This document shows, piece after piece, positions 2,974 to 45,517 of a stretch of 47,672 bases of DNA. Position numbers and translations under genes: made by a program. Source of the stretch: Eubacteriales bacterium (GTDB lineage Bacteria > Bacillota > Clostridia > Oscillospirales > CAG-272); the NCBI GenBank assembly GCA_045661185.1, contig JAZRFD010000017.1, positions 1-47,672 on the forward strand, written 5' to 3'. Position 1 is the stretch's first letter. Every line of letters starts with the position of its first letter. The notes beneath the pieces are model-generated. The model saw only the letters and a list, made by a program, of their open reading frames with translations. It had not been told where the DNA came from and ran no database searches.

Positions 2974-3018
2974 CTTATGGGGTGCTTCTTAACTGAAGTG
3001 CCCCATAAGCTTTTTGTT
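2974..3018 (+). terminator. intrinsic terminator after the XRE-membrane gene
   Basis: 15-bp stem CTTATGGGGTGCTTC / GAAGTGCCCCATAAG (two G-U pairs), 6-nt loop, then CTTTTTGTT. Confidence 0.8.
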
Positions 3019-3055
3019 GCAACCTTATTTGCCAATGGCAAACTATTTTAGTGGT

Positions 3056-3226
3056 GCACTTGGGATGTGGGGCCCAAGTGCCGGCGGGAGTATCTAACCG
3101 TCAGCTCACAAAAGAAGGCATTGCTTTGTTTGCAATGCCTTTTTAGGGGAATCTATTCTCTTTAGGTGAACGTTTTTGAAAGAGGGGTATGGGGTAGGGG
3201 CGGAGAATGCCTTTTGGCATTCTCCG
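3056..3226 (+). repeat. partial copy (R1) of the hairpin-rich composite intergenic repeat
   Basis: Shares these modules with copy A (15317-15732) in the same order and orientation. GCACTTGGG-ATGTGGGG-CCCAAGTGC hairpin (3056-3081) followed by CGGGAGTATCT. ACAAAAGA plus a hairpin with a different but still complementary stem (AAGGCATTGC/GCAATGCCTT, 3115-3141). GGTGAAcGTT...TTGAAAGAGGGGTATGGGG. A terminal hairpin CGGAGAATGCC-TTTT-GGCATTCTCCG (3201-3226). Confidence 0.55.
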
Positions 3227-3284
3227 GAAACCGCTTGCGGTTTTAACTTTATTTTAAAAAGTTTTCTCCCCATAAAATATCCCA

Positions 3285-8576: not shown

Positions 8577-10124
8577 ATGCAATTCAAGGCAAAAAAGAAG
8601 CTTGGCCTGGGGCTTTTGCTCCCCGCAATGCTTTTTCTGGCAGAGCCGATCGTGGCGTTTACGGATCTTTTGCCCAACTGCATCGGTTACCTCTTGCTCT
8701 GTGCCGCCATTTTGCAGGTGGCAGACCTTTCCGACCGCATCAACGACGCCTATGAGCGCTTCAAAAAAATGCTATGGGTCAGCGTTGGATGCTTTCTCGC
8801 GCAGCTTTACATCAATCGCGTCCTTGTCGGTGGCAGTGAAGCGATGAACGCATACGAGCGTCCCGTTTTTCTGCTCATCTGCTCCTTCGGTCTGTTTTTG
8901 GCGCATTGTTATTTTCTCATTCCCGCATACAGAGATCTGTTTTTGGGGCTGAACGCGGTGGCGGAGCGCTTTGGCGGCAGCGCGGTGCTCCTGACCAATC
9001 GCCGAGGCAGAACTCACGGTGAGCGCATGGCGCACGCGGCGGGGCGGTTTGCCTTTTGGAACGCCTTGCTGGCTCTTTTGCCCGAGGTGTCGGTGCTGAC
9101 CACCTTCGAGTTCGCCGTTGAAAAGCTCCCCTTTGATTGGTATGAGTTTATAGGACTCTTCCGCACGCTGGCGGGGATGGCCTCGGGCGTGGTGTCCTTG
9201 CTCTTTTTCATTTGCATATTGCGATATACCCACCGATTGCTCGGGGACAAGCCCTTGATGGAAGGGCTTGAGGGGCGGTATACAAAAGAGGTTCTGCCAA
9301 ACACCTACGTGCTCGGCATGCGTCGCTATCGCTTTGCGTTCCTCTTTTTAATGGTCGGCGCGGCCTTTACCGTGCGCATCCGTATGGATGAGCGCGACCT
9401 TTTGCCCACCGTCATCGGTGCTGTGCTCATTGGCGTCGGGATCCTTTGGATGGGAGAGCGATTGCAGGGAATAAAGCCCTTGATAGGAGCCCTTTGTGCG
9501 TTGGCGATCATCAGCCTTTTGCAAAGATGGCGTACCGCGGCGTATCTGGAACTGTATCTGGACGCGCAGGCATCCCTGTATTCCAGCGAAGCCTTTCGCG
9601 CCTATCTCGGCGTTCGCATTTTGACGGCTTTGGAAATTTTATGCACGCTCGGTGTGTTTTTCCTCTTGCTCCGCTTTCTTTATGCGCTGGTGCGCGAGCG
9701 GCTGCACGTGATGTACGGTGGAGCCGACGCGCGAGAGATCTCCGCAAATGCCACGGCGCGATTGCACAAACGAATGCGGATCAAACTGTACGTATGCGCG
9801 GGAGTGTTTGGGCTTTCCGCGGCAGCAAGTCTTGCCGAGGTCATTTTGGGTGTTCTGTATCCATGGCTATGGTGGATCACGCTTGCCGTGTCACTTTCGG
9901 CCGTGATCGTGTTCCTCTCATTGCTTTTTGCGCTTTTGGATGAGCTTGACGACCGTTTATCAACAGAACGGTTGTATAAACAAGAGAAAACTGCACATAC
10001 TGACTCCGTAACCCCAAAAACAAAAAAGGAGTGCAGTAATCATGCAGAACAATCAGAACAACCAGAACAAGAATCAGCAGAACAACCAGAATCAGAACAA
10101 CCAGAATCAGAACAACCAGAATAA
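8577..10124 (+). CDS. uncharacterised polytopic membrane protein, apparent two-module internal duplication, acidic EQPES-repeat tail
   Basis: GGAGG at 8565-8569 favours ATG 8577 (the ORF-track GTG at 8574 is also possible). A DLLPxxIG motif occurs twice, 244 aa apart. The C-terminus AEQSEQPEQESAEQPESEQPESEQPE is encoded by the 15-nt repeat. Confidence 0.6.
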   Translation: MQFKAKKKLGLGLLLPAMLFLAEPIVAFTDLLPNCIGYLLLCAAILQVADLSDRINDAYERFKKMLWVSVGCFLAQLYINRVLVGGSEAMNAYERPVFLLICSFGLFLAHCYFLIPAYRDLFLGLNAVAERFGGSAVLLTNRRGRTHGERMAHAAGRFAFWNALLALLPEVSVLTTFEFAVEKLPFDWYEFIGLFRTLAGMASGVVSLLFFICILRYTHRLLGDKPLMEGLEGRYTKEVLPNTYVLGMRRYRFAFLFLMVGAAFTVRIRMDERDLLPTVIGAVLIGVGILWMGERLQGIKPLIGALCALAIISLLQRWRTAAYLELYLDAQASLYSSEAFRAYLGVRILTALEILCTLGVFFLLLRFLYALVRERLHVMYGGADAREISANATARLHKRMRIKLYVCAGVFGLSAAASLAEVILGVLYPWLWWITLAVSLSAVIVFLSLLFALLDELDDRLSTERLYKQEKTAHTDSVTPKTKKECSNHAEQSEQPEQESAEQPESEQPESEQPE

Positions 10125-10200
10125 GAACCAGCAGAACCAGAACAATCAGAACAAGAATCAGCAGAACAATCAGAATCAGAACAACCAGAACAATCGCTGA
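10042..10200 (+). CDS. candidate small ORF encoding a 52-aa Asn/Gln/Lys-only peptide (leader peptide or exported peptide?)
   Basis: ATG 10042 with AAGGAG at 10026-10031 (10-nt spacer). Translation MQNNQNNQNKNQQNNQNQNNQNQNNQNKNQQNQNNQNKNQQNNQNQNNQNNR, TGA at 10198-10200. Below the 60-aa cutoff of the ORF track. Caveat: a T-poor repeat is stop-poor in every forward frame. Confidence 0.35.
   Translation: MQNNQNNQNKNQQNNQNQNNQNQNNQNKNQQNQNNQNKNQQNNQNQNNQNNR
10045..10197 (+). repeat. T-poor degenerate CAGAAC/AAT repeat with three perfect tandem 15-mers
   Basis: CAGAACAACCAGAAT x3 at 10078-10122, embedded in 153 nt built almost only of CAG, AAC, AAT and AAG triplets (10 T in total). Confidence 0.9.
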
Positions 10201-10247
10201 TCGCGCCCTCCTGCGGGAGGGTACATAGCCTGAAAGGGGGCAACGGG

Positions 10248-12524
10248 ATGTTTGAAATCGACCGTATACCGCAAAGCGTCAAGCAAGCGCTCAAGGACCG
10301 AGACGTACCGATCGAGTCGGTTCGTCTTGCCGCGCATGCCGATCGCACGCAAGCCCAAGCTGTCGGTGACGTGTATCTGTTTGCGAGCGACAAAGAGCTC
10401 ATGCTTCTGCTTGGCACGTGGACGCAATCGGAATCCCTACATACACAATTTCAGGAAACCGGGTTTGAAAGTATCCCCATTTGTACGCTTCACGATTTTC
10501 ACGTCGAGGAACTGCTTTCGGCAGGCCGCCTTGTGGCGCGCCGCCGCGATGGGGAAAGCGATTCTCCGGTCCTTTTGGCATGCTTTACGAATTTCTGCAA
10601 GGAATCCATGTTCCTCTTTTCTAAATATGCGGAAAAGCTTTCAGGGGGCGAGGAGATAGAGATCGACCCCAAGGACGATCCGTTCGCCAAATGCTGTCCC
10701 AAATGCGGACTGCGCTATCCGGATCTGAACCGCAAGGTTTGTCCCCATTGCATGGAAAAAGGGAAGCTGTTCCGCCGCTTTTCCGTGTTTTTGGCGCGGT
10801 ACAAGGGCGCGCTGATCCTCTCGGTTCTCTCCCTTGTGCTCCTGACCGCCACCAGTATTCTGGCGCCCTATCTTTCCAGCGGCTTTTTCTATGATGAGGT
10901 CATCAGCGAATACGGTGCGTTTGCGGGAAATCTTGTACTGGTCATCTTTTTGGTCGTTGCCACGGGACTGTTAAAAATGTTTTCCACCATGGTCAACAAC
11001 TACGTTACCTCTGTGATTGCAGCAAAGGTCGTTTTTGACCTGAAAAAGACCATTTTTGCGGCGATCGAGCGCCTCTCGCTCAGCTTTTTTACGTGCAGAC
11101 AAACAGGGGGACTGATGACGCAGGTTAACGAGGACGCGAATACGATCTACACCTTTTTCTGCGATTCGCTTCCGTATCTGCTCATCAATATCGTGCAGGT
11201 TATCGTTTTGTCGGTCCTGCTCTTTACCATTCAACCCTTTTTGGCGCTTTTGTCGCTTGTTACCGTTCCGATCTTCCTGATCCTGATGCGCTATCTGATC
11301 CGTCGCTTGCGCATGTATCACGCGCGGCGTTATTCCAACTCACGTCGCATGAACGGATTCCTCGCGGACGTGTTCTCGGGTATGCGCGTGGTCAAGGCGT
11401 TTTCCAAGGAGAACGAGGAGATCAAGCGCTTTACGCAGCAAAACCGCTATTTGGCGGACAGCGAAAAAAAGCTTTCGCTTTATACAAACTATATGTGGCC
11501 CGTGGCGCATCAGCTCCTTTACGTTGGCAATATCGTAGCGTGGGGCGTGGGCGGCTATATGGTCATCAGCGGGCAGTTCAACCTGACCTACGGAATCCTT
11601 TTGACCTTTGTGACCTACATCAATATGATCTTTTCACCGCTTGAATATTTCGTGGTGTTCGTGGACCGCATGGCGGATTGCTCGAACGCGCTGCAGCGTT
11701 TGTTCGAGATCATGGACGCACAGCCCGAGGTGAGCGAAAAGGAATCTCCAGAGCGACCTGAGCAGCTTCTGGGTAGCGTAGAATTCGATCACGTGTCCTT
11801 CTCCTATCAAAAGGGGAAAAAGGTGATTGACGATGTCAGCTTTGACGTGCCGGACGGAGGGATCCTCGGCATTGTCGGGCACACGGGCGCGGGCAAGAGC
11901 ACGCTGGCAAACCTCATCATGCGCATGTATGATGCCGAGGTGGGCGAGATCCGTATCGGGGGATACCCCGTCAAGGACTTGGAGCTTGCAACGCTGTATC
12001 GCCACGTGGCGATCGTTTCGCAGGAAACCTATCTGTTTGTCGGCACGATCCTTGATAACATCCGCTACGCGCGCCCCGAGGCGAGCTTTGAGGAGGTCGT
12101 TGAGGCGGCCAAATGCGCGGGTGCACACGACTTTATTATGAAGCTTCCCGACGCGTATCATACGCGCATCGGCTTTGGATATAAGGATCTGTCGGGCGGA
12201 GAGCGCCAACGCGTCTCCATTGCACGCGCGATCCTCAAAAATCCTAAAATTCTGATCCTTGACGAAGCAACTGCCGCGATGGACACGGGCACGGAGCGCC
12301 GCATTCAGGAGGCGCTTGCGGAGCTTGTCAAGGGAAAGACCACCATTATGATCGCGCACCGCTTGTCTACTCTGCGCGACGCGGACGAGCTGGTCGTTAT
12401 TGAGCACGGCCGCGTTGTGGAGCGCGGCACACACCGCGCGCTGCTTGAGATCGAGGACGGTGTTTACAAAAAGCTGTATACCCTGCAGGAAGAAGCACTC
12501 AAGAGCGCAGGGATTGCCGAGTAA
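10248..12524 (+). CDS. ABC exporter half-transporter (TMD-NBD) with ~175-aa N-terminal extension containing a zinc ribbon
   Basis: 758 aa. AAGGGGG SD 7 nt upstream. CCPKCGLRYPDLNRKVCPHC at aa 149-168, just before TM1. Six-TM exporter domain. Walker A GHTGAGKSTL, signature LSGGERQR, Walker B ILILDEATAAMD. Confidence 0.9.
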   Translation: MFEIDRIPQSVKQALKDRDVPIESVRLAAHADRTQAQAVGDVYLFASDKELMLLLGTWTQSESLHTQFQETGFESIPICTLHDFHVEELLSAGRLVARRRDGESDSPVLLACFTNFCKESMFLFSKYAEKLSGGEEIEIDPKDDPFAKCCPKCGLRYPDLNRKVCPHCMEKGKLFRRFSVFLARYKGALILSVLSLVLLTATSILAPYLSSGFFYDEVISEYGAFAGNLVLVIFLVVATGLLKMFSTMVNNYVTSVIAAKVVFDLKKTIFAAIERLSLSFFTCRQTGGLMTQVNEDANTIYTFFCDSLPYLLINIVQVIVLSVLLFTIQPFLALLSLVTVPIFLILMRYLIRRLRMYHARRYSNSRRMNGFLADVFSGMRVVKAFSKENEEIKRFTQQNRYLADSEKKLSLYTNYMWPVAHQLLYVGNIVAWGVGGYMVISGQFNLTYGILLTFVTYINMIFSPLEYFVVFVDRMADCSNALQRLFEIMDAQPEVSEKESPERPEQLLGSVEFDHVSFSYQKGKKVIDDVSFDVPDGGILGIVGHTGAGKSTLANLIMRMYDAEVGEIRIGGYPVKDLELATLYRHVAIVSQETYLFVGTILDNIRYARPEASFEEVVEAAKCAGAHDFIMKLPDAYHTRIGFGYKDLSGGERQRVSIARAILKNPKILILDEATAAMDTGTERRIQEALAELVKGKTTIMIAHRLSTLRDADELVVIEHGRVVERGTHRALLEIEDGVYKKLYTLQEEALKSAGIAE

Positions 12525-13093: not shown

Positions 13094-15310
13094 GTGAACG
13101 GATTTCAAAAAAAGCTTTTTGAAAAAGCGAAAACGCTGGATCCCGCATTGAGCGAGGAGGATTTCGTCGATCTGCTTTTGTCAGACCTTGACCCGCTCCA
13201 ACCGCAGGCGCGCGTGCAGGATTTCACGCTCCTGACGCGAGACGGGCTTTGCGTGTACCGTGACGGGGAGCGGATTTTGTTCGAGCCGATTGACGGGATC
13301 GAGCGATTGAACGTGATCAACGGTGTCGGGTGTGTGTTCGTGGAGCTGGTGCGCCGCGACGGCGAGCACGTGCGAATGGCACGCGCGGACAACCGACGAC
13401 AGTCAAGCGTTGCGCAATCGGTCAAGCGAATGAATCATTATCTGCGGCATGGCAGTACGGATTTTTCAAAGATAAAATTTAGCGGCGGGCAATGCCCACG
13501 GTGTGGCAAGCCCTATCCGCGCGGCTCACACACCTGCCCGCGGTGTACCTCCAAGAAAAAGGCACTGCGGCGTCTTTTGGGGCTTGCCATGCGCGAAAAA
13601 TGGCGCATTGCGGCATCTGTGGTTTTCTTCTTTGTGGGGACGCTTGTCAGCCTTGTGACCCCGATCATCAATCGCGTCATGGTGGACGATTACATCCAAA
13701 ACACGGGGGACCGTGCTCTGACGCGGGTTTTCTTTATCGGCTTTGTCAGCGTGGTGCTTTCCATGCTGGTGGCGAATATTCTCAAGCGCCTGATCAATAT
13801 GGGGCGCGGCTATTTTCTGGCGATCGCGGGCAACAACCTGATCGTGCGTCTGCGCGACACGGTCTTTGCCAAGATCCAGCAGCTTTCCATTTCCAGCATT
13901 TCCGAACGAACCTCGGGAGAGCTTATGAAGCGCGTCAACAGTGACACGCGTGTGATCAAGCAATTCCTGATCGACCACCTGCCAAGCCTTGTGGAGCAGA
14001 TGCTCTTGCTTTTGGCGGTCGGTGCTTACGTGTTTGTGGTGGATTGGCGCGTAGCACTCCTGATCCTAATCCCCGCACCCTTCGTAGCTCTTGCCTTCCG
14101 CATGTTCTGGCGCTTTATGCGCGGGCTCTTTCAACGCCGTTGGCAGATCAACTCCGAGACAAACGCCGTTTTGCACGACATCTTCTCGGGCATCCGTGTG
14201 GTCAAATCCTACGGCATGGAAAAGCGAGAGGAGAAGCGCTTCGTCGGCATGGCGGCGGCAGAGCGTGCGGCACAGCTGCGGATTGAGCGCTTTTGGGCGA
14301 TCCTGATGCCGCTTTTACGCTTCCTGATGGGCATCGGTGAATATATCCTGCTCTTTTACGTGGGCACGCAAATGCTCAAGGGGCAGATGACTGCGGGTGA
14401 AATGGCGCAGTTTTCCGCTTACGCGGGGATGATCTTCGGCCCGATGTCGGCGCTGATGAACTTCCCGCGGCAGTTTATGCACATGATGACCTCTCTCACG
14501 CGCGTTTATGAGATTATGGACGAGGAGATCGACATTGCAGACGGAGCTTCCAAGGAAGCCAAGCCCTTTGAGGGCTATATTGACCTTAACAACGTTTCCT
14601 TCGGCTACGATGACGCGCGCGAGGTGCTTCGCGGAATCGACCTGCATATTCGCCCGGGCGAGTTTATTGGATTGGTCGGTAAATCGGGCGTTGGAAAATC
14701 CACGCTGATCAACCTGATTATGCGTATGTACGACGTGGACGAGGGCTCGATCTGTATTGACGGTGAGGATATCCGCAACATTCCGCAGGAGGAGCTGCGA
14801 TCGCAGATGGGCGTGGTGTTGCAGGAAAATTTCCTTTTCACGGGCTCGGTCTGGCAGAATTTGACCTATGCAAAGCCAAACGCCACGCGCGAGGAGGTCA
14901 TTCAAGCCGCCAAAACTGCGGGCGCGCATGAGTTTATCATCCGCCTGCCCGACGGCTACAACACCTACGTTGGCGAAAAGGGGCATACGCTTTCGGGCGG
15001 TGAGCGCCAGCGCATCTCGATCGCGCGCGCGCTGCTGCACGACCCTAAAATCTTGATTTTGGACGAGGCGACGGCATCCTTGGATACCGAAACCGAAAAG
15101 CTGATTCAGGATGCGCTGGCGGCGTTGTCGGCAGGTCGCACGACCATTGCGATCGCGCATCGACTGTCCACGCTCCGCAACGCAACGCGACTTGTGGTCT
15201 TGGATAAGGGCGAAATTGCTGAGGTCGGCACGCACGACGAGCTGATGGAGCGCGAGGGCATCTATTACGGCCTTGTCATGGCTCAGCGTGAAATGTCGAG
15301 GATTGGGTAA
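13094..15310 (+). CDS. ABC exporter half-transporter (TMD-NBD) with ~165-aa N-terminal extension containing a zinc ribbon
   Basis: 738 aa. GTG start 6 nt after AAGGAGG. CPRCGKPYPRGSHTCPRC at aa 134-151. Walker A GKSGVGKSTL, LSGGERQR, ILILDEATASLD. Confidence 0.9.
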   Translation: MNGFQKKLFEKAKTLDPALSEEDFVDLLLSDLDPLQPQARVQDFTLLTRDGLCVYRDGERILFEPIDGIERLNVINGVGCVFVELVRRDGEHVRMARADNRRQSSVAQSVKRMNHYLRHGSTDFSKIKFSGGQCPRCGKPYPRGSHTCPRCTSKKKALRRLLGLAMREKWRIAASVVFFFVGTLVSLVTPIINRVMVDDYIQNTGDRALTRVFFIGFVSVVLSMLVANILKRLINMGRGYFLAIAGNNLIVRLRDTVFAKIQQLSISSISERTSGELMKRVNSDTRVIKQFLIDHLPSLVEQMLLLLAVGAYVFVVDWRVALLILIPAPFVALAFRMFWRFMRGLFQRRWQINSETNAVLHDIFSGIRVVKSYGMEKREEKRFVGMAAAERAAQLRIERFWAILMPLLRFLMGIGEYILLFYVGTQMLKGQMTAGEMAQFSAYAGMIFGPMSALMNFPRQFMHMMTSLTRVYEIMDEEIDIADGASKEAKPFEGYIDLNNVSFGYDDAREVLRGIDLHIRPGEFIGLVGKSGVGKSTLINLIMRMYDVDEGSICIDGEDIRNIPQEELRSQMGVVLQENFLFTGSVWQNLTYAKPNATREEVIQAAKTAGAHEFIIRLPDGYNTYVGEKGHTLSGGERQRISIARALLHDPKILILDEATASLDTETEKLIQDALAALSAGRTTIAIAHRLSTLRNATRLVVLDKGEIAEVGTHDELMEREGIYYGLVMAQREMSRIG

Positions 15311-15316
15311 AGAACG

Positions 15317-15732
15317 TGGGGAGGAGGGAACCTTCTTGAGGAGAAGGTTCCCTCCTCCCCACACCCCTCCACCCTCCAAGACCTTTGCAAAAGGGCACGC
15401 CCCGAGCGTTTGTGTCTTAACAACACAAACGCTCGGGGCGTGTGCGCTTCTGCGAAGCGCATTTCGGGTTAGGGGTATTTTTTTATCAACGGTAAACCAA
15501 CCTTGTGGAGCACTTGGGATGTGGGGCCCAAGTGCTATCGGGAGTATCTTTCCGTCGGTGTACTAAACTTTCCGACACAGTAAGCGCTGCACTGTACGAG
15601 CGAACTTTCACCACGCACTAACAAAAGAGGGCGCACCATGTTGTGCGCCCTTGCTTGGGAATGCTATAACCCGTTTGGTGAAAGTTCTTGAAAGGGGTGT
15701 GGGGAAAACTTCTTTCAAGAAGTTTTCCCCAC
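15317..15732 (+). repeat. full copy (A) of the hairpin-rich composite intergenic repeat (MITE/REP-like or structured RNA)
   Basis: 19-bp terminal hairpin 15317-15361. 20-bp perfect hairpin 15396-15442. GCGCTTC-TGC-GAAGCGC hairpin 15443-15461. GCACTTGGG hairpin 15509-15536. Long-range pair GAACTTTCACC (15602-15612) / GGTGAAAGTTC (15677-15687) enclosing hairpin 15628-15651. 14-bp terminal hairpin 15699-15732. 12-nt inverted termini CCCCACACCCCT (15357-15368) / AGGGGTGTGGGG (15693-15704). Confidence 0.7.
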
Positions 15733-15748
15733 AAAAACTCACACTATT

Positions 15749-18721
15749 TTACTCACTTCTGAGCGCCTCAACGGGGTTCCGCTTCGCGGCGAAGCGAGAG
15801 GGGAAGAGGCCTGCGATGAAGGTCAGGATCATGCTGATAGCCACGAGCACGATCGCGCCGACAACGGGCAGGGTTGCCTTGAGGTTGGGGATTCCCGTGA
15901 GCGAGAAGAGAATGATATTGATAATGATATTGAAGAACAGGGTTACAAGGATACCGATCATACCGGCTACAAATCCGACGATCAGGGTTTCGGCGTTGAA
16001 CACGCGGCTGACGTCGCGCTTGGAAGCACCGATTGAGCGCAAAATACCGATTTCCTTGGTTCTTTCCAGCACCGAGATATAAGTGATAATGCCGATCATG
16101 ATCGAGGAAACGATCAGGGAAATGGCAACGAACGCGATGAGCACGTAGGTGATTGCGTTGAGAACGGTGGTGATTGAGGACATGAGAAGCCCTACGTAGT
16201 CGGTGTATTCGATCTTCTTATCCTCGTCGACGGAATCGTTGTATTCCTTGATCAACGCGGCGATCTCGTCCTTGTTTTCAAAGCTGGACGCATAGAGATA
16301 GATGCTGACGGGATTCGCTTCATCTACGTCGCCAAGCAGATAGAGGTTGGTATCGTAGCTGGAGTCGGAGAATACGCGCGGCACACCGTCTTGCTCGTAA
16401 AGCACCGCCATTTGCGTGTCGTCAAGCGTTGCGGCAACCTGCAGGGCGGTAGCACCTGTTTGAGCGAACACCTGCTCGGAGAGCTCCTGCTGAACCGCAA
16501 GCGTTGCCGCCGCGGTGATGAAATACGCTTTGAGCTCGGGCGTCGAGAGCACCAGCTCGGGTGTGATACCCGCGGGGATCTCCATGCCCATCGAGGGGGC
16601 GAGTGCGAGCAGTTGCTCGACCATAGGGGTCAATTCCGCGTCGCTCATCTGTGAGAGCTGTGCGCTTGCCGCATTGACTGCCTCGGGGGTGATGAGCACG
16701 GTCATCAGGAACATCTGTGCCTGCTCCTCGGGGAGTGTCGCGAGATATTCCATCACGACCTCGCGCTTGCGCTCGGGCGAAACCTCACTCGTAGCAAAGT
16801 ATTTACCGGTGAAAATATCGATGGCAGGATTGGCTTTTTGCAGATTGAGCAGAGTGCTGTCCTTGGTGCGCTTAAGAACGAGGTCTGCCAGCGCCGAGGT
16901 GTAGCCGATGCTACCCGCGGTCAGGGTCGCGGCGGTCGTGCCTTCCTTGGGGCGCACGATACCGACAACGCGCAGCTTGATCGAATCCGCATCATCGTAA
17001 AGCGTGTTGCGTCCGTCTGCCGTATCGGTCAGATCAGAGTAGCCATTGCCGTCGGGCGCATACGCGTCGGAGGCCAGAACCAAACGAAATTCCATGTCGC
17101 GGATCTCGTCAAAGCTCCAGGTTTCGCGGTCGGTGGATACCTGCTCGCCCTTTACGGCGGCATTCCAAAGCTGCAGCATCTCATCCTTGGTGCGAAGACC
17201 CAGCGCGTAGAGCGAAAGGTCGCTTAATTCATTGTTTTCGCTGACGACCAGCACGACCTCGTTAGCGGCGGTCGGCCAGCGGCTACCGCTGTCTACAAGC
17301 TCATATTGCTCCTTGAGCACGTCGTTGACAAGCGAATCGCTGTTTTTGTCCAAGGGCTCAAGCATCTCGGTCCAAACGTCCATGCCGCCCATCATGCTCA
17401 TGCTGCCGCTCATGTCTCCCATGGAGGAGCCGTTGAGCATCGCGTCGCTCATCCATCCAAAGAGGTCGGATTTGACGACGCTGCCGTTCTTGTCCTTAAC
17501 AAGCACGGTCCAGTTGAAGTTGTATGCGTACTGCACGGCGGTCAGATATTCGTCGAATTTTTTAGAGTCCTCCAAATGCTTTTTAAAGGAGGCTAGATCG
17601 TTCTTGGTGCTTCCCGCAGAGCCCATCGCGTTGACAAGGTCGGCAAGGATCGTGCTTTCGTAGACCTTGTCCTTGTCGTGCTTGGTCGCGTTTTCCTGCT
17701 TTTCCATCAGCGTGGTCATCACGGCGGCAAAGTCCATGGTCTCGGCATGAAGCTCGAGCGGGTAGCCCGCCAGCGTATCGCGCTGAACGGCATTGATATA
17801 GTTGTTGACACCCGTGGAGACCGACAGGATCAGCGCAATGCCGATGATACCGATTGATCCCGCAAAGGAGGTCATAAAGGTGCGTCCTTTTTTGGTTAAG
17901 AGGTTATTGAGCGAGAGGGAAAGCGCCGTGAAAAAGGACATGGACTTCTTCTTTTTCTTTTTCACCGCCTTTTTCTCGGCTTGTACGTTCGGCGCCACCT
18001 CGTCCCGATGTGCAGGAGTCGGCTCTGCGCTTTCATCCTCACCGTGATAAGGATTGGAATCGTCCACAATGTGACCGTCGAGCACGCTGATGATACGGTT
18101 GGAATAATCATGTGCGAGGTCGGGGTTGTGCGTGACCATGATGATCAGCTTTTTGTGCGAGATCTCGCGCAGAATATCCATGATCTGCACGCTGGTCTGC
18201 GTGTCAAGCGCGCCCGTCGGCTCGTCGGCAAGCAGAATGTCGGGGTCATTGACCAAAGCGCGCGCGATTGCGACACGCTGCATCTGTCCGCCCGAGAGCT
18301 GATTGGGCTTTTTGTTCAGCTGATCTCCAAGTCCCACGTCGGTCAATGCCTTTGCGGCTCTCTCGCGACGCTCCTTTTTGGAAATGCCCGAAAGCGTCAG
18401 CGCCAACTCTACGTTGGCAAGCACCGTCTGGTGGGGGATCAGATTGTAGCTTTGGAACACAAAGCCGATGGAGTGGTTGCGGTAGGTATCCCAATCTGCG
18501 TCACGGTATTCCTTTGTGGACGTGCCGTCTATGATCAGGTCACCGCTGGTGTATTGGTCAAGGCCTCCGATGATGTTCAGGAGCGTGGTCTTTCCGCATC
18601 CCGAGGGCCCCAGAATCGAAACGAACTCGTGGCGGCGGAACTGCAGCGTAATGCCGTCCAGCGCGCGGACCGACGTGTCGCCCGTTTTGTAATCCTTTAC
18701 AATTTGTCTCAGTTCAAGCAA
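15749..18721 (-). CDS. fused ABC ATPase + FtsX/MacB-type permease with a very large extracytoplasmic domain
   Basis: N-terminal ATPase ([39 protein letters not shown]), Lys-rich linker, TM1, ~560-aa hydrophilic domain, C-terminal FtsX-type 3-TM bundle. TTG 18721 ([11 protein letters not shown]) sits 7 nt after GGAGG (18733-18729) and is preferred over the ORF-track TTG at 18736. Confidence 0.85.
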
Positions 18722-18761
18722 TTTGGTGCCTCCCAAAAGAAAATGATTGCAATTTTAGCAT

Positions 18762-31453: not shown

Positions 31454-32047
31454 TTTGCCAAGCGTATCAAGCGCGTCCACGGGATTTGCCTTGCCGTAGC
31501 CGATCAGGTTTGCGGGGTCGAGGTTGATGCCGAGGTTGTCAAGACCGATGTCCTGAATGGCGCGTGCGAGCGTGATGGGCGTTTCCTGTCTCGTTTCAAA
31601 GAGGAAATACTGACCGTTATCCTTTGCATAGGACGCGACCTCGCGCAGGGCATAGATCAAGCCGTGATACTTTTCGGTGGTGGGATCCTCGGGAATAAAG
31701 CCCGCGTGCGTAGCGATCTGTCCCACGCCCAGCTTCTTTGCAAAGTCCGAGCCCGCCTTCAGGTCAAGAATGCGCTGGAAGCGGTACGCCTCGGGCACAA
31801 GACCCAGCGTGTACTGTCCCTCGTAGAAGTTCCAGAAGCCGCGTCCCGACCAGCCCGTCCAGAAGGTGGAGATCGTTACGTTATATTCGGCACACGCCGC
31901 CTTGATGCGCTCGGCGTTTTCATCGTTGTAGCAAGCCGTGTCCCAGCAGGAAATCTGGCAATAGCCAAAGCCCATGTCGTGTACCTTCTTGATTTTTTCT
32001 GCAATATCCGACCGTGCGTTGAGATTTACCATCACTCCGAGTTTCAT
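31454..32047 (-). pseudogene. sugar phosphate isomerase/epimerase (xylose-isomerase-like TIM barrel), C-terminally truncated
   Basis: Family-like sequence runs from M1 to ...NLDPANLIGYGKANPVDALDTLGK (aa 198). The ORF then reads through the flippase terminator and the antisense of the flippase 3' end to 31178. The last beta/alpha units seen in the paralog at 33098-33958 (HLKD..., ENNH) are missing. Confidence 0.5.
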
Positions 32048-32062
32048 ATCAACACCTCGCTT

Positions 32063-33085
32063 TTAAATAGAATAGGGGATCTTCTCGCCGCCGCGATCCG
32101 CGCTTTCGCGCAGAGCCTCGATCAGCTTAACGGTCGCGCAAGCGCTTTCGGGCGTGTTGACTGTGTTGGGAAGGTCGTCAACGATCGCTTTTGCAAAGAA
32201 AGCAATTTCCTCAGCGTAGCAATCGCCCGTGATGGCAGGCAGATCGACAGGCACTTCGTTTTCCTGCCAAAGCACCGCGTGACCGTCGGGAGCGCGCATG
32301 ATCGTGGCTTTTTCAAATACCGCGCGGTAGTCGGCAACGAACGAGGTGCCGCGTGTTTCATCCCAGGAGCCGTTGATGCAAACGGTTACGTCATCGTAGA
32401 ACAGACGCGTGTTTTCCCACTGCCAACGGGTCTTTCCATCATAAGCGACCGTGCTGACCGCCTTCGGCTCGCCCAAAAGGAAGCGTGCCATATCAATGTC
32501 GTGAATGTGCATATCCAGAATACAGCCGCCGCTGCGGTCGGTGTCCTGGAACCATTGCTCAAAGCCCCAGATGGGCAGGGCGCTCAGACGGCTCATGTTA
32601 AGCGCGCGGAGCTTGCCGTATTTGCCGCTGTCAATTGCTTCTTTCAGGTGGAGGTAGGGGGCGTCAAAGCGCAAGCACTGACCGATCATCAGCTTTTTGC
32701 CGCACTCTTTGGCTACGGCGATCATTTCCTCGCAGTCATGGGAGGAGAGCGCCATGGGCTTTTCACAAAGCACGTGCTTGCCCGCGCGCAAAAGCTTGAC
32801 CGTGTATTCCTTGTGCAGGTACGTGGGCAGACAAATGTCCGCCATGTCAAAGTCCTCGTTTGCAACCAGCGCGTCCACGTCGGTGTAGATGTGCATCTCC
32901 TCGGGGAGCGTCACGGGCTCGGTGGAGGTGTTGATTTTGACCTGACGCGTCAATTGCTCAGGAACGATGTCACATACTGCCACCAAGGAGAGGTAGGGGT
33001 GAGATTCCAGCATCATCTGATATCCCGAATAGTGTGCGCGGGCGATTCCGCCAAAGCCGATCATTGCGATTTTTACCTGTTTCAT
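32063..33085 (-). CDS. Gfo/Idh/MocA family NAD(P)-dependent oxidoreductase
   Basis: 340 aa. N-terminal Rossmann KIAMIGFGGIARAH, EKPMALS motif, C-terminal alpha/beta domain. Confidence 0.85.
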   Translation of the reverse strand: MKQVKIAMIGFGGIARAHYSGYQMMLESHPYLSLVAVCDIVPEQLTRQVKINTSTEPVTLPEEMHIYTDVDALVANEDFDMADICLPTYLHKEYTVKLLRAGKHVLCEKPMALSSHDCEEMIAVAKECGKKLMIGQCLRFDAPYLHLKEAIDSGKYGKLRALNMSRLSALPIWGFEQWFQDTDRSGGCILDMHIHDIDMARFLLGEPKAVSTVAYDGKTRWQWENTRLFYDDVTVCINGSWDETRGTSFVADYRAVFEKATIMRAPDGHAVLWQENEVPVDLPAITGDCYAEEIAFFAKAIVDDLPNTVNTPESACATVKLIEALRESADRGGEKIPYSI

Positions 33086-33097
33086 AGCGTACTCCTT

Positions 33098-33958
33098 TTA
33101 TATATTGATGATTTTGTTTACAAGATCCATAGCGGTCGCAACGCCATCTTCATAGCTGCCGGCGTGGTTGTTTTCCAGAGCGATCGCGCCCGCATAGCCG
33201 CTTTCCTTCAAAATTTCCAAGGCCGTGACCGCATCAACGATGCCTTCACCGATCACACATTCCTTGACGTACGTGCCGTCGCGCGTTTGGTCAGCGCCCT
33301 CGTCATTTGCCTCGCACACCACGTAATCCTTCAGATGCACGTGCTTGAACTCGGATGCAAACGCGCGATAGAAGTCTACGGGCGGCTCGTTGACGAACAG
33401 CGTGTTGCCAACGTCACCGCAAATGCCGACGCTTGGCACCCTTGCCTTGACCGCGCGGTAAAACGCGCCAAAGCCGTCCACGCCGTTAAAATACAGGCCC
33501 TGATCCTCGTAAAGGCAGGCCACACCGAGAGATGCCGCGTATTTTGCCACGCGCACCACGGCGGGGAGAACGGTGGTAAGCATTTTGCCGTAGGGAATGG
33601 GGGTACCCTCGGTGCCGAGCGTGATGGTGTGATGCAGATAGGGAGAGCCGAGCAGAACGGCGCGCTCCACGTATTTCATCAGCTTTTCTTCGGATGCGTG
33701 ATTGATTCCGTCGGGGGAGGTGGGATCGTACAGGTTGACAGCCACGGAGTAGCACGCAACCGACAGACCGCGCTCGGAGAGAATGCGGCGATATTCGCGC
33801 GCTGCTTCAAGACTTGGAACGAGCTCTACCCAATCCTTACCGATAAATTCAAAAAATTCAACCGAGGAAAAGCCGAGCCTTACCGCCTCGTCAGCGGCAG
33901 CCTCGATTCCGCACGCTTTTACGCGGTGATACCATTTGGCGCACATTGTAAAATTCAT
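33098..33958 (-). CDS. sugar phosphate isomerase/epimerase (xylose-isomerase-like TIM barrel)
   Basis: 286 aa. AP_endonuc_2-type pattern with GFSSVEF, HHTITLG, CYEDQG, HVHLKDY, IALENNH. Confidence 0.8.
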   Translation of the reverse strand: MNFTMCAKWYHRVKACGIEAAADEAVRLGFSSVEFFEFIGKDWVELVPSLEAAREYRRILSERGLSVACYSVAVNLYDPTSPDGINHASEEKLMKYVERAVLLGSPYLHHTITLGTEGTPIPYGKMLTTVLPAVVRVAKYAASLGVACLYEDQGLYFNGVDGFGAFYRAVKARVPSVGICGDVGNTLFVNEPPVDFYRAFASEFKHVHLKDYVVCEANDEGADQTRDGTYVKECVIGEGIVDAVTALEILKESGYAGAIALENNHAGSYEDGVATAMDLVNKIINI

Positions 33959-34016
33959 TTTTTTAATCCCTTTCTTTTGTGATTTGAGAAGAAAACGATG
34001 AGTTTTTGCATTTTTA

Positions 34017-34121: not shown

Positions 34122-34939
34122 ATGAACGATCTGCTTTTATATGAAAAAATGCCACAGGACGCATTTTTGGTGCGCTTTTTGAAGTACACCGAAAGCAATT
34201 ACAGCGTTTTTCTGCATTGGCACGAGCACATTGAATTACATTTGATTCTTGACGGCGCGTGCAAGCTGCGCAACGGCGAGGAGGAGATCCTGCTTGAGGC
34301 GGGGGATTGCGCGGTGATCAACGGAAACGATCTGCACGAGGGGTGTGGCGGGAAATGCGCATTCATTTGCTTGATCCTCTCCTCTCGCCCGATTTTTTTG
34401 AAAATCACCGCGCTTCCTTTCAAAAAAGGATACGCGATGCGTACGTGGCAGAGCTGATTGAAAAGATCACGCGCGGTGACAAAACGCTGGACAACGTAAC
34501 CGATCTTGAGAGCCGCGGATATGCGTATCTGTTGATCTCGCATCTGATCAAGCACTATGCCGTGCGAACCTTCAGCGAGGCGGTGTATTCACAGCATTTT
34601 AAAAAGATGAACCTTGTCAATCGCGCGGTGCGCTTTATGAACGAGCACTACGCCGAGCCGCTTTCCACACGCGCGCTTGCCAAAGAGCTGCATTTGAGCG
34701 AGGGATATTTTTGCGAGATATTCAAGAGCACCACGGGAAAGACCGCACTGGAATACTTGAACGGCTTGCGCGCCGAAAAGGCGGAGCAGCTCTTGCGCAC
34801 GACCGATATGACCGTGTCCGAGATCGCGTTTTGCTGTGGCTTTGCGGATGCGAACTATTTTGCGCGCGTCTATAAGCGATGCATGGAAAAAACGCCGCGA
34901 CAGACGCGGGAGGGATGCGATACGAGGGGGACTTTTTGA
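34122..34939 (+). pseudogene. AraC-family transcriptional regulator (cupin + HTH), disrupted by a frameshift
   Basis: The cupin N-domain (frame of ATG 34122, AGGAG SD) stops at 34457. The HTH domain (LSTRALAKELHLSEGYFCEIFK ... SEIAFCCGFADANYFARVYK) continues in the other frame to 34939. Removing one copy of the tandem CCTCT/CCTCT (34376-34385) joins them as ...AFICLILSPDFFENH... Confidence 0.6.
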
Positions 34940-35315
34940 GAAAAGTCCCCCTCGCGCTCCCCTCAAAAACTTTCACCTACATGAATTTTGTTTTCCCTAT
35001 GGAGGGAGCACCACATCGTGCACCCTCTTTTTTTGTGCGTGGTGAAAGCTCGTTCATGCAGTACAGACTTTGTTTCTGCGTCGCTTGCTGCCGCTCGCTC
35101 GCACGTAACAGTGTTGGTGCGCGATTCGGCAGAGGCAGATAGCTTGCAGATAACACACCTCAACCGAAATGCGCTTCGTAGAAGCGCACACGCCCCCACG
35201 ATCGGCGTTGTCAAGACACCGATCGCGGGGGCGTGCTCTTTGTGAAAAGGTTTTAGAGGGTGAGGGGTATGGGGAGAGGGAGACCTTTTCCTTAAAAAGG
35301 TCTCCCTCTCCCCAT
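34924..35315 (-). repeat. full copy (B) of the hairpin-rich composite repeat, inverted relative to copy A
   Basis: 13-bp hairpin 34924-34953 (araC stop codon in its loop). AACTTTCACC 34968-34977 / GGTGAAAGCT 35041-35050 around hairpin 35002-35027. GCGCTTC-GTA-GAAGCGC 35171-35187. 20-position hairpin 35189-35235 (2 mismatches). 21-bp terminal hairpin 35269-35315. Collinear with the reverse complement of copy A. Confidence 0.7.
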
Positions 35316-35332
35316 ATGTCTTTCCTTTAAAA

Positions 35333-36016
35333 TTATCTCGCCAGAATGAGCTTGGTCAATTCAACGGGATCAACGATCTTGCCGTCCTTATAGACGCGCA
35401 TGTTGCCCGAAGCGATCTCGTCGATGAGGATCACCTCACCGTTGTTGTAGCCGAACTCGAACTTGATATCCCACAGGTCAAGGCCGATGGACTTCAGGTC
35501 GTCAGCTACGATCTTGGTAATAGCGAGCGTCTGCTTTTTCATGCTGTCAAACATCGCCATATCCATAACGCCAAGAGCTGCCAAACCCTCAGCGGTTACG
35601 AGCGGGTCGCCCTTTGCATCGTTCTTGAAGGTGCATTCAACGTATCCACCCTCCAGCGGGGTACCGTCAGCGATGTATTCGCCGTAGCGACGGATAAAGC
35701 TACCGGTTGCAACCAAGCGGCAGATGACCTCAAGACCGTGACCGAACACGGTTGCGGGAAGCACCTCCATGGTTACGTTGTCGATGTCAGCACCGACGTA
35801 ATGCGTCTTGATGCCTGCCTTTTTGCACAGCTCAAAGTAGTAGATAGAGGTGCGCAAATTTGCTTTGCCGATGCCCTCAATGGTCAGACCAACGGTGTTT
35901 TCACCCGGATCAAACACGCCGTCCTTGCCGGTACAGTCGTCCTTGAATTTGAGCATTACGTTGCCGTTGTCGAGCTGATAAACGTCCTTGGTTTTTCCTG
36001 TGTAGAGCTTTTTCAT
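35333..36016 (-). CDS. SAICAR synthetase (PurC) family protein, divergent and stand-alone
   Basis: 227 aa. [11 protein letters not shown]-terminal motif, LWDIKFEFG and [13 protein letters not shown] in the positions of PurC motifs. GGAG SD. Not in a pur operon. Confidence 0.65.
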
Positions 36017-38396: not shown

Positions 38397-38544
38397 GTTC
38401 TTTTTCTTTTGACCGTGTAGGCGCAAAAGAAAAAAGAACCAAAAAAAGCGCCGTAAGGGGAATTTCGCCCTCTGCGAAGGGCGAGAAGGGCTACGCGCCC
38501 TTCACCGCGCGAGCTTTTGAAAAAGCTCGACCAAAACTTTCACC
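38397..38544 (-). repeat. T/A-rich hairpin plus partial copy (R4) of one terminus of the composite repeat
   Basis: Hairpin GTTCTTTTTTCTTTTG / CAAAAGAAAAAAGAAC (38397-38439). TCGCCCT-CTGCGA-AGGGCGA (38465-38484). AAGGGC/GCCCTT (38486-38502). CGAGCTTT-TGAA-AAAGCTCG (38510-38529) followed by AACTTTCACC (38535-38544), the same order as the left end of copy B. Confidence 0.5.
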
Positions 38545-38566
38545 AAAAATGAGTGAGGATAGATTT

Positions 38567-41268: not shown

Positions 41269-41274
41269 AATGAT

Positions 41275-41304
41275 CGGGGAGGCTCGGTTGAGCCTCCCCG
41301 TTTT
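41275..41304 (+). terminator. intrinsic terminator after ispH::S1
   Basis: CGGGGAGGCTC-GGTT-GAGCCTCCCCG followed by TTTT. Confidence 0.8.
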
Positions 41305-41335
41305 GCCCCTTTAGAGATTTGATGGGAGATAGAAT

Positions 41336-45097: not shown

Positions 45098-45517
45098 ATG
45101 AAAAACTATCGTGTAACTGTAAATGGTGTTGTTTATGACGTAGTCGTTGAAGAAGTGAACGGCGCACAGGTTCCTTACGTTGCTCCCGTGGCGGCTCCTG
45201 CTCCCGTAGCAGCTCCTGCTCCCGTAGCGGCTCCCGCTCCCGCAGCAGCTCCTGCTCCCGCAGCAGCTCCCGCTCCCGCAGCAGCTCCCGCCGGCAAGGC
45301 AGGCGCAACCGCTGTTAAGGCTCCCATGCCCGGCACGCTCGTTAAGGTCAACGTAAAGGTTGGCGACTCCGTTAAGAAGGGCGACGTTCTCTGCGTTCTC
45401 GAGGCTATGAAGATGGAAAACGACATCATGGCTCCCGCAGACGGTGTTGTAGCAACCGTTGAGGCTGCGCAGGGTGCAAGCGTTGCAACCGACGCGGTTC
45501 TGGTAACTTTGAACTGA
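45098..45517 (+). CDS. biotin carboxyl carrier subunit with Ala-Pro linker
   Basis: 139 aa. Linker (PVAAPA)n/(PAAAPA)n, then a biotinyl domain with VLEAMKMEN. Confidence 0.9.
   Translation: MKNYRVTVNGVVYDVVVEEVNGAQVPYVAPVAAPAPVAAPAPVAAPAPAAAPAPAAAPAPAAAPAGKAGATAVKAPMPGTLVKVNVKVGDSVKKGDVLCVLEAMKMENDIMAPADGVVATVEAAQGASVATDAVLVTLN

Follow-up and report, generated by a model that had tools for sequence, protein, structure and literature searches.

The analysed DNA was a contig of 47,672 nt (JAZRFD010000017.1, from an Eubacteriales bacterium; hereafter the window) that represented ordinary chromosome. Its genes included dnaE (C-terminal part), mnmA, secA, several ABC exporters, yajC, rimM, trmD, uvrC, purC, cmk, ispH-S1 and oxaloacetate decarboxylase genes. 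Enzymes of mobile elements (transposase, reverse transcriptase or integrase) were not found among the gene products. Exact-protein look-ups with the window proteins gave no record elsewhere. Two intergenic regions, copy A (15316-15733) and copy B (34923-35316), contained a ~400-nt feature composed largely of hairpins. Both of them separated convergent genes: A was located between an ABC exporter gene (13094-15310, + strand) and a MacB-like gene (15749-18736, - strand), and B between an AraC-family gene (+) and purC (35333-36016, -). We found that this feature was a mosaic of dispersed modules filling convergent-gene gaps, and not a single RNA or a miniature inverted-repeat transposable element (MITE). 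Namely, each composite was a type-L cassette at the stop codon of one gene facing a type-T/middle cassette at the stop codon of the other.

The initial annotation of this DNA had described the reverse complement of A as collinear with B, and BLASTN reproduced this relationship in two collinear segments (167 nt with 80.8% identity and E=2e-34; 137 nt with 72.3% identity and E=1.4e-17). The linkers and hairpins quoted there were also present. Each linker occurred exactly once per copy versus 0-0.1 expected by chance from shuffled sequences, and the motif GGGGTRTGGGGA was found four times in the window versus 0.17 expected. However, the single ~400-nt unit proposed in the annotation did not survive the comparison. 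A and B shared two halves, and the central ~105 nt of the two copies gave no mutual alignment in BLASTN. Moreover, the element was modular because a third gap of the window (2974-3274) had the middle of A: its segment 3025-3113 was 76% identical to 15479-15567, and it also had the GGGGTATGGGG motif. The middle of A was thus a separate module. Similarly, the two ends of A, previously taken for terminal inverted repeats, proved to be a short repeat present twice, the two copies being independent and each oriented by its own adjoining gene. Since no target-site duplication, clean empty site or transposase was seen and the end units also occurred alone, the MITE-like interpretation was abandoned as well. 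Thus, from the suggestion of a structured RNA or MITE-like element we retained a structure under selection, but neither the single RNA nor the MITE.

The modules are described below with respect to the P strand, which started with GGGGTRTGGGGA, and its complement, the S strand. R1 denotes the model of the unit hairpin, and L-numbers denote related loci that were compared with the window. In a multi-copy alignment, the consensus of the basic unit in the S orientation was TTTTG-TGGGGAAAACTTCTT-loop-AAGAAGTTTTCCCCACA-CCCCTTTCAAGAAC; GTTCTTGAAAGGGGTGTGGGGAAAACTTCTTTCAAGAAGTTTTCCCCACA was one G-rich strand version, and the right unit of B was longer. Within the 47.7 kb of the window, the unit model recognised four units clearly and a further one or two weakly. 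The type-L layout consisted of the unit, a CCAAGACCTTTGCAAA linker, a ~21-bp hairpin with the loop CTTAACA, a small hairpin GCGCTTC-NNN-GAAGCGC and a T-rich tail, and it was complete in five copies (window A, window B, L121, L123 and L088). The type-T layout consisted of the unit, AACTTTCACC, a spacer, a terminator hairpin with a T-tract and GTGCGTGGTGAAAGTT. Copies of it were found in window A, window B, L121 and L124, with shorter forms in L122 and in the loci binned as Lentisphaeria. The middle module H1 was identified by nhmmer twice in the window (Table 1) and at nine other loci (L059, L102, L141, L122, L095, L025, L091, L073 and L124). A related ~180-nt arrangement with H1, 'M + unit', was represented by 24 nearly complete copies beside unrelated genes, and some 8-kb loci contained two or three of them. 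It was considered as a single conserved noncoding RNA gene and rejected, since the flanking genes were unrelated between loci.

T-tract hairpins were embedded in each cassette. The combination of a GC-rich hairpin and a sense T-tract, characteristic of Rho-independent terminators, was found in the type-T hairpins of both A (-) and B (+) and, in a weak form, in the type-L small hairpin, and it was absent from the unit and the long hairpin. In the related locus L122, three tandem truncated units (GCGTTTTTTGTGGGGGACTTTTGAAAAAGGA, 10220-10330) were located right after the ABC exporter stop and before a complete type-T cassette.

The stems of these modules covaried strongly. In 52 copies of the unit hairpin, 98.7% of the cells were paired and 85 cells were double-changed, and none of 500 shuffles reached the covariation score. 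The stems were almost purely Watson-Crick, with G-U pairs in 5 of 779 cells. The long hairpin of the annotation was found in both copies as part of type L; across the five copies, 15 of its 21 pairs were double-changed and 97.1% were paired, compared with 43-60% in slid controls (0/500 shuffles). In the four full composites (window A, L424, L121 and window B), double changes affected 34 of 109 predicted pairs. Accordingly, the differences between stems were compensatory rather than random, and pairing rather than sequence was conserved, both as initially claimed; selection on structure holds the shape of the modules. The long-range pair AACTTTCACC/GGTGAAAGTT was nearly invariant in the four-copy alignment, and hence covariation said nothing about it. 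The terminal hairpins of the copies had 21-22-nt arms that were 100% complementary. Folding of copy A was far more stable than that of shuffled sequences on both strands (z = -15.2 for + and -14.2 for -), and the energies of the two strands were nearly equal; the folding model considered Watson-Crick and G-U pairs only. When G-U and A-C counts were used as a test of the RNA strand, the long hairpin (7 vs 2) weakly favoured the gene-sense strand, and the other helices were uninformative. The folding strand may be RNA or DNA, given the nearly pure Watson-Crick stems, the equal folding of both strands and the purine-motif code described below.

In addition to these stems, the unit had a tract beside its hairpin that copied the adjacent arm in mirror order and changed with this arm. 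On the G-rich strand, the order was third strand, a 3-nt turn (TRT), purine arm, loop and pyrimidine arm. Sequences of arm and tract that changed together included GGGGAAAAC with CCCCTTTC, GGGGAGAAC with CCCCTCTC, GGGGAGACC with CCCCTCCC, GGGGAGGAGAAAAAC with CCCCTCCTCTTTTC, CTTCTT with CAAGAAC and CTTTTT with CAAAAAC. The four composites had four different arms, each of them mirrored (GGGGAAAA, GAGAGAAA, GGGAAAAC and GAGGGGGA), and in L424 GAGAG replaced GGGG at all three places together, namely in the third strand and in both the 5' and 3' arms. When the flank was compared with the reversed 3' arm, 4.64 of 8 positions matched, whereas 2000 permutations of the flanks among units gave 3.57 (standard deviation 0.12, maximum 3.96). 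A or G at arm position 2 tracked T or C in the flank (Fisher p = 3e-9); because the unit copies were mutually related, the p-values for the mirror tract overstate independence, although many distinct variants still followed the rule. The third-strand code was A 155, T 11, G 5 and C 3 opposite A of the arm, and G 34, A 15, T 0 and C 0 opposite G; about 30% of the G positions thus carried A, and the match was imperfect. As in triplex repeats, the unit sequence had three consecutive blocks with a short loop and the base code of the purine motif.

Replication-type copying yields direct or inverted repeats, not mirror repeats. Since a mirror repeat would not be producible by copying, we infer that the tract probably reflects selection on a parallel or Hoogsteen-type contact. 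Antiparallel pairing of the flank with the hairpin loop or the 5' arm, as in an attenuator-like switch, was rejected: flank and loop showed no covariation, and the score of a model with antiparallel pairing was 1.15/8. A G-quadruplex or i-motif was discarded because the common short units had just two G4 tracts, and the likeness of GGGGTGTGGGG to the human insulin-linked repeat was coincidental only.

The position of the units was tied to the adjoining genes. Among family units, the gene that adjoined the TCCCCAYA side (P strand) was on the opposite strand in 64 cases vs 11, usually at a distance of 5-30 nt, whereas the gene on the other side was oriented at random (22 vs 22). The unit therefore followed closely on a stop codon, and its S strand corresponded to the mRNA sense. 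In the mosaics, each half started 5-20 nt past a stop codon with the perfect hairpin of a unit. GC skew was positive across the whole window and yet both unit orientations were present on that single replication arm, so that the orientation tracked the gene and not the replication arm.

Comparison of orthologous sites revealed both maintenance and turnover. In eight species with MacB-like orthologues (63-93% protein identity), the unit directly followed the stop, and its stems differed yet remained complementary; five other species had a plain terminator after this stop. At site A, the full composite was found in the window, in L121 (90% protein identity) and in L424-L426 (89%). In L430 (83%) the gap measured 104 nt and contained a single long hairpin, and in L427-L429 (81%) it measured 40 nt and contained one bidirectional terminator; neither group of loci gave a match to the unit model. 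The middle module at site A was of A's kind in L424 and of B's kind in L121, the closest metagenome-assembled genome (MAG). At the mnmA site, L424 had an intact unit and a B-type middle, and the window had the H1 middle and a disrupted unit. Relatives without the composite carried a different terminator at the site, with neither a target-site duplication nor a clean empty site seen. Thus, modules were gained, lost and swapped between sites.

The repeats were dispersed within one lineage. A pattern scan with one genome per species identified more than 119 loci, of which about 85 had the family flank, and the latter were mostly from MAGs of uncultured gut Clostridia, Oscillospiraceae or 'Eubacteriales'. 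The further copies that the annotation had asked for were thus found as the third partial mosaic, as orthologous composites in two related MAGs and as dozens of module copies in related species. In 1.03 Mb of loci anchored on the ABC gene, units were restricted to species with at least 63% identity to that gene. The purC protein was too conserved to select close relatives, and the loci anchored on it served as a negative control: in 0.85 Mb they had only two units in total, and none of the 80 other Clostridia had a unit after purC, all 80 showing a plain terminator there. We conclude that the modules belong to repeat families that are dispersed in a single lineage of uncultured gut Clostridia. 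The family had been unrecognised in the annotation, and no model of Rfam 15 matched at its gathering score anywhere in the window or at the elements in 16 related loci; with relaxed thresholds, copy A and one related element gave generic hairpin noise only. No description of the repeat family was found in the literature searched. Among viral contigs, 23 pattern matches were obtained, none with the family flank. A metagenome scan with the pattern GTGCGCTTCNNNGAAGCGCA, which was too generic, returned 120 unrelated, mostly soil contigs and no family member, and a scan of species genomes with the linker GAAATGCGCTTCGNAGAAGCGCA gave one match, at a contig end.

Family-like units were also observed in MAGs binned as Lentisphaeria/Victivallaceae (L005, L017, L024, L032, L064, L094, L106 and L118) and as Desulfovibrionaceae (L037 and L066). 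These units were frequently at contig ends, and the loci binned as Lentisphaeria had near-identical flanks (…GGTGAAAGTTTTTGGAAAAT-unit-AAACAGTTTTGCA). The units in MAGs of other phyla reflected either horizontal spread or mis-binning. Additionally, five independent assemblies of one related species (L431-L435) broke inside the long hairpin 3' of the ABC gene, and long perfect palindromes seemed to fragment these assemblies.

Table 1. Coordinates of the modules that make up the intergenic mosaics of the window
Feature	Position	Strand	Remarks
Copy A left unit hairpin	15316-15362	+	Arms 15316-15336 and 15342-15362, 100% complementary; partial R1 match, 20.3 bits; starts 6 nt past the ABC exporter stop, sense to that gene
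Mirror tract of A left unit, ACCCCTCCACCCTCCAAGACC	15363-15383	+	Outward from CCCC, the 3' arm in mirror order; read directly
Type-L long hairpin of A	15396-15442	+	~20-bp stem, conserved loop CTTAACA; five-copy alignment
Type-L small hairpin of A, TGCGCTTC-TGC-GAAGCGCA then TTTC	15443-15465	+	Terminator-like for the + strand gene; kept in A, B, L121, L424 and L001; tail in L121 is TTTTTGTT
Middle module H1 of A	15498-15553	+	Hairpin with GTGG-containing loop, then CGGGAGTATC; nhmmer
Type-T block of A	15603-15686	-	AACTTTCACC (15603-15612) and GGTGAAAGTT (15677-15686) around terminator hairpin 15628-15651; T-tract on - strand (terminator scan); block aligned in four copies
Copy A right unit	15687-15733	-	Purine mirror tract CTTGAAAGGGG (15687-15697) and hairpin (15698-15733); R1 match 15670-15739 (-), 80.1 bits, E=5e-21; 16 nt from the MacB-like gene stop, sense to that gene
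Copy B left unit, mirror tract and AACTTTCACC	34923-34977	+	R1 match 34915-34984 (+), 38.6 bits; diverged, GAGGGGG replaces GGGGA; stop of the AraC-family open reading frame falls within the hairpin
Type-T terminator hairpin of B	35001-35052	+	Hairpin 35001-35034, T7 tract, then GTGCGTGGTGAAAGCTCG
B-type middle module	35053-35165	.	Unalignable with the A middle; matches the middles of L121 and L424 1-100
Type-L small and long hairpins of B	35170-35235	-	Small hairpin 35170-35188, long hairpin 35189-35235
Copy B right unit	35255-35316	-	Purine mirror tract AGAGGGTGAGGGG and hairpin 35268-35316; arms 100% complementary; R1 match 35236-35322 (-), 30 bits; 17 nt from the purC stop
Third, partial mosaic	2974-3274	.	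Between XRE-family gene (+) and mnmA (-); terminator 2974-3016, H1 3043-3098, bidirectional terminator 3110-3144, GGTGAACGTTTTTGAAAGAGGGG and disrupted unit 3165-3274 (R1 16.9 bits; orthologue L424 1-260 has an intact unit)

Several other features of the window were observed. In the third mosaic, the terminator at 2974-3016 had the stem base TATGGGG/CCCCATA as in the unit, but it possessed a T-tract and lacked the mirror tract, which hints that units and plain terminators may be connected. Another terminator, CGGGGAGGCTC-GGTT-GAGCCTCCCCG followed by TTTTGCCCCTTT (41269-41333), was located between two same-strand genes; its match to the unit model was weak (15.6 bits, E about 0.05), and it may represent a relative that is either distant or decayed. 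The gap before cmk (38420-38550) contained a different dispersed repeat with GC-rich hairpins, CGAGCTTTTGAAAAAGCTCG and then a type-T-like tail AAAACTTTCACC, copies of which were found in L141 (88% over 130 nt), L095, L120, L406, L014, L127 and L006. Two repeats were coding and in-frame: a CAGAAC-type (Asn/Gln-rich) repeat at 10036-10199, at the end of a 516-amino-acid open reading frame, and an 18-nt Ala/Pro-rich repeat at 45164-45325, in the linker of a biotin-carrier protein. Finally, a 772-amino-acid open reading frame without a family match (31664-33982, +) overlapped two well-supported genes of the - strand, 32063-33085 (GFO/IDH/MocA family) and 33098-33958 (xylose-isomerase-like TIM barrel), and was probably spurious.

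Taken together, we favour the interpretation that A and B are paralogous intergenic mosaics of tail-to-tail gene-end cassettes, whose modules are dispersed, structure-selected and swapped, and which end and insulate transcription units; we would assign it a probability of roughly 0.55. As judged from sequence, the most likely function of the cassettes would be to end and insulate convergent transcription units. A cassette starts with a perfect hairpin a few bases past the stop codon, its G-rich lower stem being mirrored by the adjoining tract, followed by the linker. It finishes with a terminator-like hairpin, of type T or type L, at which the sense transcript would stop. A second barrier could then be provided by the unit beside the stop codon, by one of two routes. 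It might act as a protective structure at the 3' end of the mRNA, or its folded G-rich non-template strand might block a polymerase that arrives from the convergent gene. For T7 RNA polymerase, such blocking by stable triplex DNA has been shown in vitro (PMC4538819).

A stronger version of this proposal is that the unit may be a natural triple helix with a selected third strand, which in genomes assigned by binning to several gut phyla directly follows stop codons and always points the same way. Such a helix would be a structural barrier that blocks convergent polymerases via the folded G-rich non-template strand or protects the 3' region of the mRNA. We regard this version as tentative and rather doubtful. 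If true, no earlier repeat family of this sort would have been backed by three-way (mirror) covariation rather than by fixed sequence.

Several observations weighed against the proposed function. The unit hairpin had no following U-tract and was therefore not itself a canonical terminator. The TRT sequence was complementary to AYA across the hairpin and covaried with it (GC 41, AU 10), which competes with the role of TRT as a turn. A triplex in the mRNA sense would require four adjacent protonated C.G-C triples. The near lack of G-U pairs fitted a constraint at the DNA level or a copying mechanism as well as it fitted RNA. Finally, the closest known relatives, the BoxC/PIT elements of E. coli, showed neither promoter nor terminator activity (PMC4666352).

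The alternative that survived best was that the repeats are selfish non-autonomous mobile DNA. In this case, the hairpins would be recognised by a transposase encoded elsewhere (REP/REPIN-RAYT or IS200/IS605-derived), and the position at gene ends would result from tolerated or targeted insertion. Such an origin would explain why the repeats were multi-copy and dispersed beside unrelated genes, why their presence was patchy among close relatives and why the contigs of several MAGs ended at or near units. Nearly pure Watson-Crick stems are expected of single-stranded DNA hairpins, and family-like units in MAGs binned to three phyla suggested horizontal spread. We nevertheless considered mobile DNA unlikely: the 47.7-kb window had no transposase, reverse transcriptase or integrase, no target-site duplication was seen, the 'empty' related sites held a different terminator with no clean excision point, and the family flank was absent from all 23 viral-contig matches. 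Moreover, the units stayed at the same gene end over 63-93% protein identity with compensated stems, their orientation tracked the adjoining gene and not the replication arm, and a copying mechanism could probably neither make nor keep a mirror repeat.

Somewhat less likely again was a non-transcriptional role at the DNA level. Here the unit would form a non-B structure (an intrastrand purine-motif triplex plus a cruciform) and would serve as an instability or recombination hot spot, a replication pause or a nucleoid-protein site, as proposed for the E. coli repeat TMECO. The third-strand code fitted the purine motif, including T opposite A only, and this motif is reported to form in DNA and not in RNA; the TMECO triplex is stable in vitro and marks rearranged loci (PMC4666352). 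The visible swapping of modules between sites and the equal folding of both strands also agreed with this explanation. However, TMECO has no gene orientation bias (PMC4666352), whereas the units described here were strongly oriented right behind stop codons, and the cassettes held ordinary terminators too.

Another possibility was that the elements encode one or more discrete structured small RNAs with their own promoter, consisting of a hairpin, a C-rich single strand (CACACCCCUUUC) and a terminator. The type-T cassettes indeed read as a 5' hairpin, a C-rich stretch and a terminator, and their helices covaried strongly. However, A had no promoter-like site and B one weak site, no Rfam family matched, and G-U pairs were nearly absent. 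Additionally, the element started 1-30 nt past the stop, so it would be co-transcribed with the gene, and the copy number was far too high for a typical trans-acting small RNA. This explanation therefore appeared very improbable. Although both copies were found between convergent genes, where terminators are expected, chance likeness or unrelated ordinary terminators could practically be dismissed given the BLASTN values (E=2e-34 and 1e-17), motif counts far above shuffles and dozens of related copies elsewhere.

BoxC-type triplex motifs and intergenic mosaics were discovered decades ago, and there is still no agreement on what they do. Because the triplex repeats of E. coli are nearly invariant, the contacts that matter in them are not visible from sequence alone. 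In the present family, the variation tracks three strands at once, and this is direct evidence from evolution for a function of the mirror tract. Moreover, the one-orientation tie to stop codons makes the purpose of triplex repeats testable at the level of transcript ends and convergent transcription. From a practical point of view, the elements broke MAG assemblies, and they could mark a poorly known gut lineage.

An intrastrand triplex motif in the BoxC/PIT elements of E. coli was reportedly described by Hoyne and Maher in 2000. In BoxC/TMECO, two mirrored G-rich blocks 3 nt apart and a C-rich block form an intrastrand triplex in vitro (Holder et al. 2015, PMC4666352). Similar to the unit, these repeats are short, multi-copy and strictly intergenic, sometimes occur as inverted pairs and have no transposon or phage link. 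They share the mirrored G-rich blocks, the 3-nt turn and the C-rich block, and the complementary strand has a pyrimidine-type arrangement. The differences concerned the order of blocks, among other features. In class I intrastrand triplexes the order is third strand, purine, pyrimidine, and TMECO belongs to class II with pyrimidine, purine, third strand (PMC4666352), so that the unit, being of class I, had the reverse order. In the unit, the capacity for a triplex was confined to the base of a longer hairpin, the top of which had a mixed sequence. Its copies varied, so that the three-way relation was seen as covariation, whereas TMECO is nearly invariant. The unit was oriented and placed right behind stop codons, and TMECO has no such bias. 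The hosts also differed, namely gut Clostridia (and MAGs binned as Lentisphaeria or Desulfovibrionaceae) vs Proteobacteria, and the two were likened by layout, not by sequence similarity. The unit was rejected as a member of the TMECO family, since the pattern CCCTCNCCC N3-6 GGGNGAGGG N3 GGGNGAGGG was absent and both block order and sequence differed. Thus, judging by its layout, the unit would be of the same kind as TMECO but outside the TMECO family.

Intergenic modular repeats are also represented by the REP-built BIMEs of enterobacteria, the pneumococcal BOX and the neisserial NIMEs. Like them, the mosaics described here combined short palindromic modules with linkers at gene 3' ends or in convergent gaps, and their module content depended on the site. 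As with REP and BIME, the modules were short palindromes, multi-copy, extragenic and arranged in mosaics. In contrast to BIMEs and the others, their sequences were unrelated, they included a triplex-type unit and true terminators, and the orientation of the cassettes was tied to the adjacent gene. No RAYT (Y1/HUH transposase) gene was found among the genes of the 47.7-kb window. Bidirectional or paired Rho-independent terminators occupy the same location, and related genomes had a single bidirectional terminator at site A. However, just 2-3 of the 6-8 helices per mosaic were terminator-like; the unit and the long hairpin lacked a proper U-tract and were kept as a family across loci. The mosaics resembled MITEs in their length of ~400 bp, inverted ends, strong predicted fold and multiple copies. 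They differed in that the end units were independent and also occurred singly, no target-site duplication or related transposase was found, and the interior was not conserved as a whole.

Known RNA triple-helix stability elements are the ENE of the PAN and MALAT1 RNAs and the transposon ENEs (PMC7583470, PMC12501189). The likeness to them was one of possible action only: a major-groove triplex on the sense strand at the 3' region of a transcript could resist decay. The ENE clamps an A-rich tail with U-rich loops, whereas in the unit a C/U tract would have to serve as the third strand along a G/A arm, with several protonated cytosines, and there was no homology between them. Thus, intergenic mosaics and triplex-type repeats were both known kinds of systems, and what was new here, relative to Rfam and the literature searched, was the family itself, its cassette architecture, its anchoring to stop codons and its covarying mirror tract.

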